This document shows, piece by piece, positions 38,870 through 39,120 of a DNA stretch of 64,000 bases. The DNA is taken from NCBI RefSeq assembly GCF_055900595.2, contig NZ_CM148325.1, one strand, 5' to 3'. The notes beneath the pieces are model-generated. The model had not been told where the DNA came from, made no database searches, and saw only the letters and a program-made list of their open reading frames with translations. Numbering within the stretch: the first letter of the stretch is position 1; the number at the start of each line of letters is the position of its first letter. A program made the translations under genes and the position numbers.

Positions 38870-39120
38870 CATAAGGCATCAACGCACGAACGCCGGATGC
38901 GGCGTGAACGCCTTATCCTGCCTACCAAACCCGCACCGATTGTAGGCATGATAAGACGCGCAAGCGTCGCATCAGGCATCAGCGCATTACCGCCGGATGC
39001 GGCGTGAACGCCTTATCCTGCCTACCGAACCCGCACCGATTGTAGGCATGATAAGACGCGCAAACGTCGCATCAGGCATCAGCGCACGAACGCCGGATGC
39101 GGCGTAAATGCCTTATCCGC
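38870..39120. repeat. BIME/REP cluster with ~100-bp tandem period (2 full + 1 partial unit)
   Basis: CGCCGGATGCGGCGTGAACGCCTTATCC...GCATCAGGCATCAGCGCA unit recurs at 38891, 38991 and 39091; palindromic REP (GCCGGATGCGGCGTGAACGCCTTATCCGGCCTAC-like) sequences. Confidence 0.85.

Follow-up and report, generated by a model that had tools for sequence, protein, structure and literature searches.

A three-Y BIME-2 array with a 100-bp period in the efeB-phoH spacer of Escherichia coli

The spacer between efeB and phoH carries a tandem array with a 100-bp period that is almost certainly an ordinary BIME-2 of E. coli, and the allele studied here has one full repeat unit more than the common alleles, together with an efeB-proximal Y REP (Y #1) that is intact, unlike that of K-12. 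The repeat region extends over 38860-39125 of the window, by which we mean the whole 64-kb stretch of DNA that was analysed; this DNA matches E. coli, and its comparison with strain Z0117EC0005 over 1,401 bp gave 100% identity. We document the anatomy, location, family membership and copy-number polymorphism of the array, and we consider the identification as a BIME-2, taken as one explanation together with the origin and function proposed below, likely to be correct. All of it is established biology. BIME-2 arrays, the subject of work by Gilson, Bachellier, Hofnung and colleagues, and the differences in their copy number from strain to strain have been on record since the 1990s, the Y-S-Z2 unit of about 100 bp likewise, and K-12 itself has a REP element at this site.

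An earlier note on this DNA had claimed a unit that recurs with an exact 100-bp period and with only a few substitutions between copies, and both parts of that claim hold. Tandem Repeats Finder reports one array at 38867-39122 (period 100, 2.6 copies, 91% matches, 0% indels, score 442), which is the sole tandem repeat with a score of at least 80 in the 64-kb window, and a repeat search places three in-register copies at 38860, 38960 and 39060, with spacings of 100 and 100. The self-alignment that the note had named as a check likewise reveals the periodicity. At lag 100, 141 of 156 positions match over 38866-39121 (binomial P about 7e-64, with the match probability set at 0.264), as against 59 matches in the best 156-nt stretch of the rest of the window (mean 38.7, sd 5.6). 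The three unit starts that had been given, 38891, 38991 and 39091, are the plus-strand starts of three Y-type REPs. Between the complete units (38891-38990 and 38991-39090) there are differences at five of 100 positions (38927, 38964, 38987, 38988 and 38990), and three of these differences sit in a single S linker, as GTAAT versus TTCGT; the third copy of the unit is partial and more degenerate than the two complete ones. Short-read assemblies can miscount tandem repeats, and an extra unit might be suspected to be an assembly or sequencing artefact, a suspicion to which we attach practically no weight. Eight complete E. coli genomes, assembled independently, share the 1,401-bp stretch with 100% identity, and the extra copy is therefore no assembly error; further haplotypes with three Y REPs are known from five more genomes, and the units differ at five positions, so that reads can be placed unambiguously.

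In the sense of efeB, which is that of the minus strand, the elements run Y-S-Z2-l-Y-S-Z2-l-Y-S and close with a Z2 remnant. The 100-bp unit comprises a Y of 34-35 nt, an S of 13-14 nt, a Z2 of 36 nt and a linker of 16 nt. The array opens with Y REP #1 (39091-39124), which is degenerate, with seven mismatches to the canonical Y, and folds at -14.7 kcal/mol (z -2.57). S linker #1 (TTCGTGCGCTGAT; 39078-39090), Z2 REP #1 (GCCTGATGCGACGTTTGCGCGTCTTATCATGCCTAC; 39042-39077; three mismatches to the canonical Z2, fold -12.6 kcal/mol, z -3.3) and the 16-nt head-to-head linker #1 (AATCGGTGCGGGTTCG; 39026-39041) lead to Y REP #2 (GTAGGCAGGATAAGGCGTTCACGCCGCATCCGGCG; 38991-39025; one mismatch, fold -14.9 kcal/mol). 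Beyond it lie S linker #2, a lineage-private variant (GTAATGCGCTGAT; 38978-38990), Z2 REP #2 (38942-38977; two mismatches, fold -14.8 kcal/mol, z -5.1) and the 16-nt head-to-head linker #2 (AATCGGTGCGGGTTTG; 38926-38941), and then Y REP #3 (38891-38925; again one mismatch and -14.9 kcal/mol), a 35-mer identical to Y #2. S linker #3 (TTCGTGCGTTGAT; 38878-38890) and a 15-nt Z2 remnant (GCCTTATGCGAATCC; 38863-38877), found in most of the alleles sampled, form the phoH-proximal end. All of these elements are on the minus strand. Both Z2 REPs, Y #2, Y #3 and the remnant were located by motif search, S linker #2 by motif and genome searches, and the others by tokenisation, for which the canonical Y and Z2 were validated only indirectly, through the recovery of the six Y and six Z2 REPs of REP325 with at most three mismatches. 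Every REP is predicted by RNA folding to form a stable hairpin, at -12.6 to -14.9 kcal/mol, and the facing arrangement of Y and Z2 REPs would allow the array as a whole to form one long imperfect hairpin (-141.7 kcal/mol, z -6.55). A promoter and terminator scan found no promoter for a separate RNA in the array interior. The program-made open reading frames that cross the array (38747-39007, plus strand, 86 aa; 38857-38979, minus strand, 40 aa) were treated as by-products of the repeat.

The array lies downstream of efeB and next to the phoH Pho box, where the earlier note had put it. The gene efeB (39130-40401, minus strand; from the ORF list and from PGAP annotation of the 100%-identical NZ_CP098223.1) encodes a deferrochelatase/peroxidase and is the last gene of efeUOB, with its TAA stop codon at 39130-39132. 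The gene phoH (37604-38392, minus strand, 262 aa; PGAP call) is co-directional with it. A pattern search for the Pho box of phoH puts its core (CTGTCATCACTCTGTCAT) on the minus strand at 38817-38834, and the pattern occurs once in the 64 kb versus 0.04 expected by chance. In the sense of efeB, 8-10 nt separate its stop codon from the start of the array, whose other end is about 30 nt ahead of the Pho box. No intrinsic terminator was called from efeB to phoH by the terminator scan. A small 4-bp hairpin (GCUG/CAGC) followed by U6, at 38840-38862 on the minus strand, is conserved in most alleles and was considered as an intrinsic terminator after the array; we rejected it as such, since none was called there and the hairpin folds no better than shuffled sequence (-6.2 kcal/mol, z -0.24), and at best it may be a very weak terminator-like site.

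Two further observations concern the flanking genes of this strain. Because efeU is annotated as intact in the strain identical to the window (5793-6401 of its extracted record) and as a pseudogene in K-12 (357-1186), the efeUOB operon upstream of the array is probably functional in the window strain. On the other side, at 38371-38667 (minus strand), the window differs from K-12 by a 1-nt indel within the N-terminal extension of the 354-aa PhoH annotated in K-12. The window ATG at 38667 starts an out-of-frame ORF of 98 aa, and the longest in-frame PhoH ORF has 307 aa, with the PGAP call at 262 aa; judged from these reading frames, the long PhoH start of K-12 is not conserved in the window.

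BIME-1 is defined by a long L linker that carries an IHF site. The array in the window has Y and Z2 REPs, and not Z1, alternating in inverse orientation; its Y-Z2 linkers have 13-14 nt and none is long; it is present in multiple tandem copies (2.6 at period 100); it occupies the extragenic DNA at a transcription unit's 3' end, with the efeB stop codon on one side and the phoH Pho box on the other; and the number of tandem units at the locus varies between strains. The BIME composed of REP units that the earlier note had recognised can therefore be specified, from its alternating Y and Z2 REPs and short linkers, as a BIME-2, a class whose definition is summarised in Ton-Hoang et al. 2012 (PMC3333891), with a tandem copy number per locus that differs among strains. 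The arrangement of inversely alternating Y and Z2 REPs, with the S linker on one side and the 16-nt linker on the other, in tandem at the 3' end of an operon, is that of BIME-2 in general, from which the window array differs in nothing essential, although its outer Y is degenerate and its terminal Z2 truncated. Elements of this class also carry a motif of type s, l or r, flanking or head-to-head, and the head-to-head linker in the window has 16 nt.

REP325 of K-12, which serves as the reference BIME-2, lies between yjdM and yjdN and is the source of naRNA4, resembles the window array in its exact 100-bp period, in its Y(rc)-S-Z2-linker polarity relative to the upstream gene, and in having flanking genes that are co-directional. 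It is, however, a separate locus, and has 5.8 copies (period 100) versus 2.6, with 96% matches between units versus a slightly lower 91% in the window. The S linkers also differ (AACGGTGCCGACT in REP325 versus TTCGTGCGCTGAT in the window), and the 16-nt linker of the window, AATCGGTGCGGGTT(C/T)G, has an 8-nt core, GGTGCGGG, in common with the 17-nt linker of REP325, where it is in inverse orientation. The REP element in the efeB-phoH spacer of K-12 MG1655 is orthologous to the window array and shares its flanks, its Z2-linker-Y-S-remnant core and its Pho box; it is shorter by 118 bp, a full 100-bp unit and 18 nt from the efeB-proximal Y together, and has one intact Y and one Z2 where the window array has three Y REPs.

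The Rfam family naRNA4 (RF02564), which is derived from REP325 RNA, matches the minus strand of the window at 38945-39022 (71.8 bits) and at 39045-39122 (63.0 bits), both above the gathering score of 59.5, with weaker matches on the opposite strand (42.3 and 37.4 bits). We read these matches as pointing to membership of the repeat family in sequence and structure, and not to a dedicated RNA gene. A match to the CPEB3 ribozyme, at 17.2 bits versus a gathering score of 35, was dismissed as chance. Elsewhere in the window, a single Y-type REP (55002-55036) directly adjoins a match to Rfam ES036 (CssrF) at 55037-55079 (38.5 bits, slightly above the gathering score of 37.6), which is another case of an Rfam "sRNA" family adjoining a REP. 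A match to Ysr251 (Yersinia sRNA 251) at 37609-37802 on the plus strand scores 190.8 bits versus a gathering score of 100 and lies antisense to the 3' end of phoH, and a match to RNA-OUT at 27183-27252 on the minus strand (97.3 bits) suggests an IS10-type insertion sequence.

Copy number at such loci had been described in the earlier note as strain-variable, and this is the case at efeB-phoH itself. One representative per length class was extracted and tokenised, and the 14 genomes sampled carry one, two or three Y REPs, with spans of 1,184-1,410 bp for the 1,401-bp query. Tokenisation yields three Y REPs in the window, MFDS1022581 and 2013C-4282, as three different haplotypes; two intact Y REPs in RMDEC465, 2020CK-00188 and EC42405; a Y #1 truncated by an 18-nt deletion in K-12 and E-1246; further variants in MS20659 and ATCC 25922; a single Y REP in 16F5M1D1; and an unrelated hairpin plus one Y REP in SX48 and ETEC4071. 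In these last two genomes the hairpin, ATGCCCGATGCGCAGGTTTATCGGGCAT, stands in for the efeB-proximal part of the BIME, and the single Y REP is kept. An 8-nt tandem duplication (TTCGTGCG or CTCGTGCG) within the first S linker is present in MFDS1022581, 2020CK-00188 and EC42405, and explains the length classes of 1,309, 1,310 and 1,410 bp.

To place these alleles by frequency, we used the best 60 of 5,426 complete genomes together with two further sets of 40 and 60 rows, each taken at even intervals from the ranking. Among the best 60 of 5,426, eight genomes are identical to the window over 1,401 bp, and 12 have a span of 1,401-1,410 bp, which corresponds to three Y REPs; the four that are not identical to the window carry two other three-Y haplotypes. 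In the evenly spaced samples, which include about 95 records with the locus, the window's own strain alone reaches 1,401-1,410 bp; about nine in ten of the records measure 1,282-1,294 bp, and a few 1,184-1,271 bp. The three-Y form is thus rare, observed in at least 12 of 5,426 genomes (roughly 0.2%), and the sampling bounds it to a few per cent at most. Altogether, four distinct three-Y haplotypes were found, in the window, MFDS1022581, 2013C-4282 and E69. The E69 record (CP089930.1; array at 9691-9974 of the extracted record) was the single one returned when species representatives were scanned for exact occurrences of a 22-nt sequence near the Pho box. Its three-Y array has 100 consecutive perfect matches at lag 100 and a compensatory C-G to U-A change in a Z2 stem, and its flanks diverge by 6-9% from those of the window; among the RefSeq complete E. 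coli genomes this allele does not occur, the best match there being 88.9%. As the three-Y allele of E69 is independent, expansion of the array at efeB-phoH occurred more than once.

The age of the extra unit is another matter, and the recent duplication that the earlier note had read from the similarity of the copies is not clearly supported. The nearest relative with two Y REPs, RMDEC465, differs from the window allele by the absence of precisely the middle unit and by one SNP in the Z2 remnant, and its flanks differ from those of the window at 17 of 1,140 positions (1.5%), whereas the two full units of the window differ from each other by 5%. With a difference between units larger than that between flanks, we do not prefer a simple recent duplication in place; a fresh duplication looks like the array of E69, with perfect identity over 100 positions at lag 100, unlike the array in the window. 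Nor is there a second copy of the linker variant of the middle unit within the 64-kb window. The 84-nt Z2-S-Y stretch with the GTAAT linker is found at 100% identity only in the eight genomes that carry the window allele, and its next best match among the E. coli genomes searched is 95.2%; ectopic gene conversion as the source of the middle unit was rejected for want of a donor, given that the stretch is at most 95.2% identical outside the genomes with the window allele. Two readings remain. The duplication may be older, with alleles of the RMDEC465 type arising later through deletion between the identical Y #2 and Y #3, or the extra unit may have come from unequal exchange between diverged alleles. 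Compared with E-1246, MS20659, ATCC 25922 and SX48, the phoH-side flank (38300-38862) has 4-7 differences in 563 positions and the efeB-side flank (39124-39700) 38-51 in 577 (7-9%), and this mosaic points to a recombination breakpoint that would lie within or beside the BIME. Gain and loss of units would come about when the 100-bp direct repeats misalign in homologous recombination or slip during replication, and recombination mediated by TnpA(REP) is a possible alternative.

With respect to function, we propose, by analogy with REP325, that the array may be transcribed as the 3' UTR of efeUOB. The REP hairpins would then block 3'-to-5' exonucleases and stabilise the upstream efeUOB mRNA, and would attenuate read-through into the co-directional phoH, which would thereby be kept under its own PhoB-dependent promoter; more units would probably have a stronger effect, possibly in proportion to their number. 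At the level of DNA, the Y REPs are probably gyrase sites. REP325 serves both to attenuate the downstream gene, in a partially Rho-dependent manner, and to stabilise the upstream mRNA (bioRxiv 10.64898/2026.03.23.713779). The transcriptional or mRNA-stability role that the earlier note had suggested for REP clusters agrees with this literature on REP325. Among the roles that we considered, that of an efeUOB 3' UTR is the best supported, because the architecture, polarity and gene arrangement are like those of REP325 and there is no terminator before the phoH promoter; the claim that this array does stabilise efeUOB mRNA and attenuate read-through into phoH is one for which we see the case as evenly balanced. 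The same study (Harris et al. 2026; bioRxiv 10.64898/2026.03.23.713779) found the effects of REPs to be context-dependent, and terminal REPs were not generally linked to longer mRNA half-lives.

A serious alternative for the extra unit is neutral drift of a dispensable repeat. Most E. coli genomes have shorter or truncated arrays or, as in SX48 and ETEC4071, a different hairpin, which argues against a need for the extra unit, and the unit may thus be neutral. On a broader version of this explanation, the array would be repeat DNA without function, a selfish or passively kept BIME whose copy number drifts by slippage and recombination, and we regard this as quite possible, though short of probable. 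The spacer is extremely polymorphic, with one to three Y REPs, a truncated Y #1, an 8-nt linker duplication or a different hairpin; the three-Y allele is rare, its span appearing in the evenly spaced samples only in the window's own strain; and effects of REPs that depend on context and are not uniform (bioRxiv 10.64898/2026.03.23.713779) would fit as well. Yet in none of the alleles sampled does the stretch from efeB to the Pho box lack a GC-rich hairpin, of REP type or other, and this constancy, along with the compensatory change in the Z2 stem of E69, suggests that a hairpin is retained. Drift is, moreover, compatible with the identity of the array as a BIME-2 and disputes only its function. 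On a further reading, the number and integrity of the units could be a heritable, strain-specific dial for EfeB output, for efeUOB mRNA stability and for leakage into phoH, and the recurrent gains represented by the four three-Y haplotypes would then reflect selection rather than drift. We hold this to be a long shot; were it true, EfeB output and mRNA stability would be set jointly by the extra unit and by an intact Y #1 close to the stop codon, and the leak into the phosphate-starvation gene phoH would be of iron- or acid-induced efeUOB transcription.

The array could also act mainly as DNA, as a strong gyrase site and topological barrier, independent of transcription, between the efe and phoH/pga units. 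Sites of gyrase cleavage are enriched in BIME-2 elements and favour Y over Z2, and the cleavage signal increases when transcription is blocked (PMC6379681), which would suit an allele with three Y REPs. Only a subset of BIME-2 elements is cleaved, however, and the available portion of the supplementary text of that study has no entry for phoH, efeB or ycdB, K-12 having one intact Y at this site; we consider such a role unlikely but credible, and it and a role at the level of RNA are not mutually exclusive. Rather improbable, in our view, is an effect on translation, in which the intact Y #1 hairpin would stall terminating ribosomes and lower the translation of EfeB; this, too, would be compatible with the 3' UTR role. 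According to PMC12306157, which cites Liang, Rudd and Deutscher 2015, REPs affect translation when the hairpin lies at most 15 nt from the stop codon. The first paired base of Y #1, 8-10 nt past the efeB stop codon, is within that distance as given there, and the 18-nt deletion in K-12 and E-1246 falls in this very REP. Against this, no REP of the array is as degenerate as Y #1, which has seven mismatches and an outer stem that is weakened, and the published effect was demonstrated for a few genes only. Still harder to credit is a gene of the naRNA4 type, with Y-S-Z2 units processed to RNAs of about 77 nt that bind HU and condense the nucleoid, as was proposed for REP325 RNA by Qian et al. 2015 (PMC4550694). 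Two units exceed the RF02564 gathering score, and do so on the transcribed strand, but the Rfam model amounts to a single BIME-2 unit, so that it will pick up any Y-S-Z2 pair, and the match says nothing about function. In addition, deletion or overexpression of REP325/naRNA4 left nucleoid volume unchanged, nucleoid compaction was not measurably affected by REP325, and no stable ternary complex of HU, DNA and naRNA4 was found (bioRxiv 10.64898/2026.03.23.713779). No promoter for a separate RNA was called inside the array.

The finding has little consequence beyond annotation. The window carries a rare allele, one unit longer than that of most strains. The efeB-phoH spacer deserves to be annotated as a repeat region, the program-made ORFs that cross the array are to be ignored, and Rfam naRNA4 matches at BIME-2 sites are to be taken as the repeat family and not as a dedicated sRNA gene. 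What the locus does offer is a natural series of alleles, with one, two or three units, a truncated form and a different hairpin, and this series is convenient for testing the proposal that REP arrays tune termination and mRNA stability.
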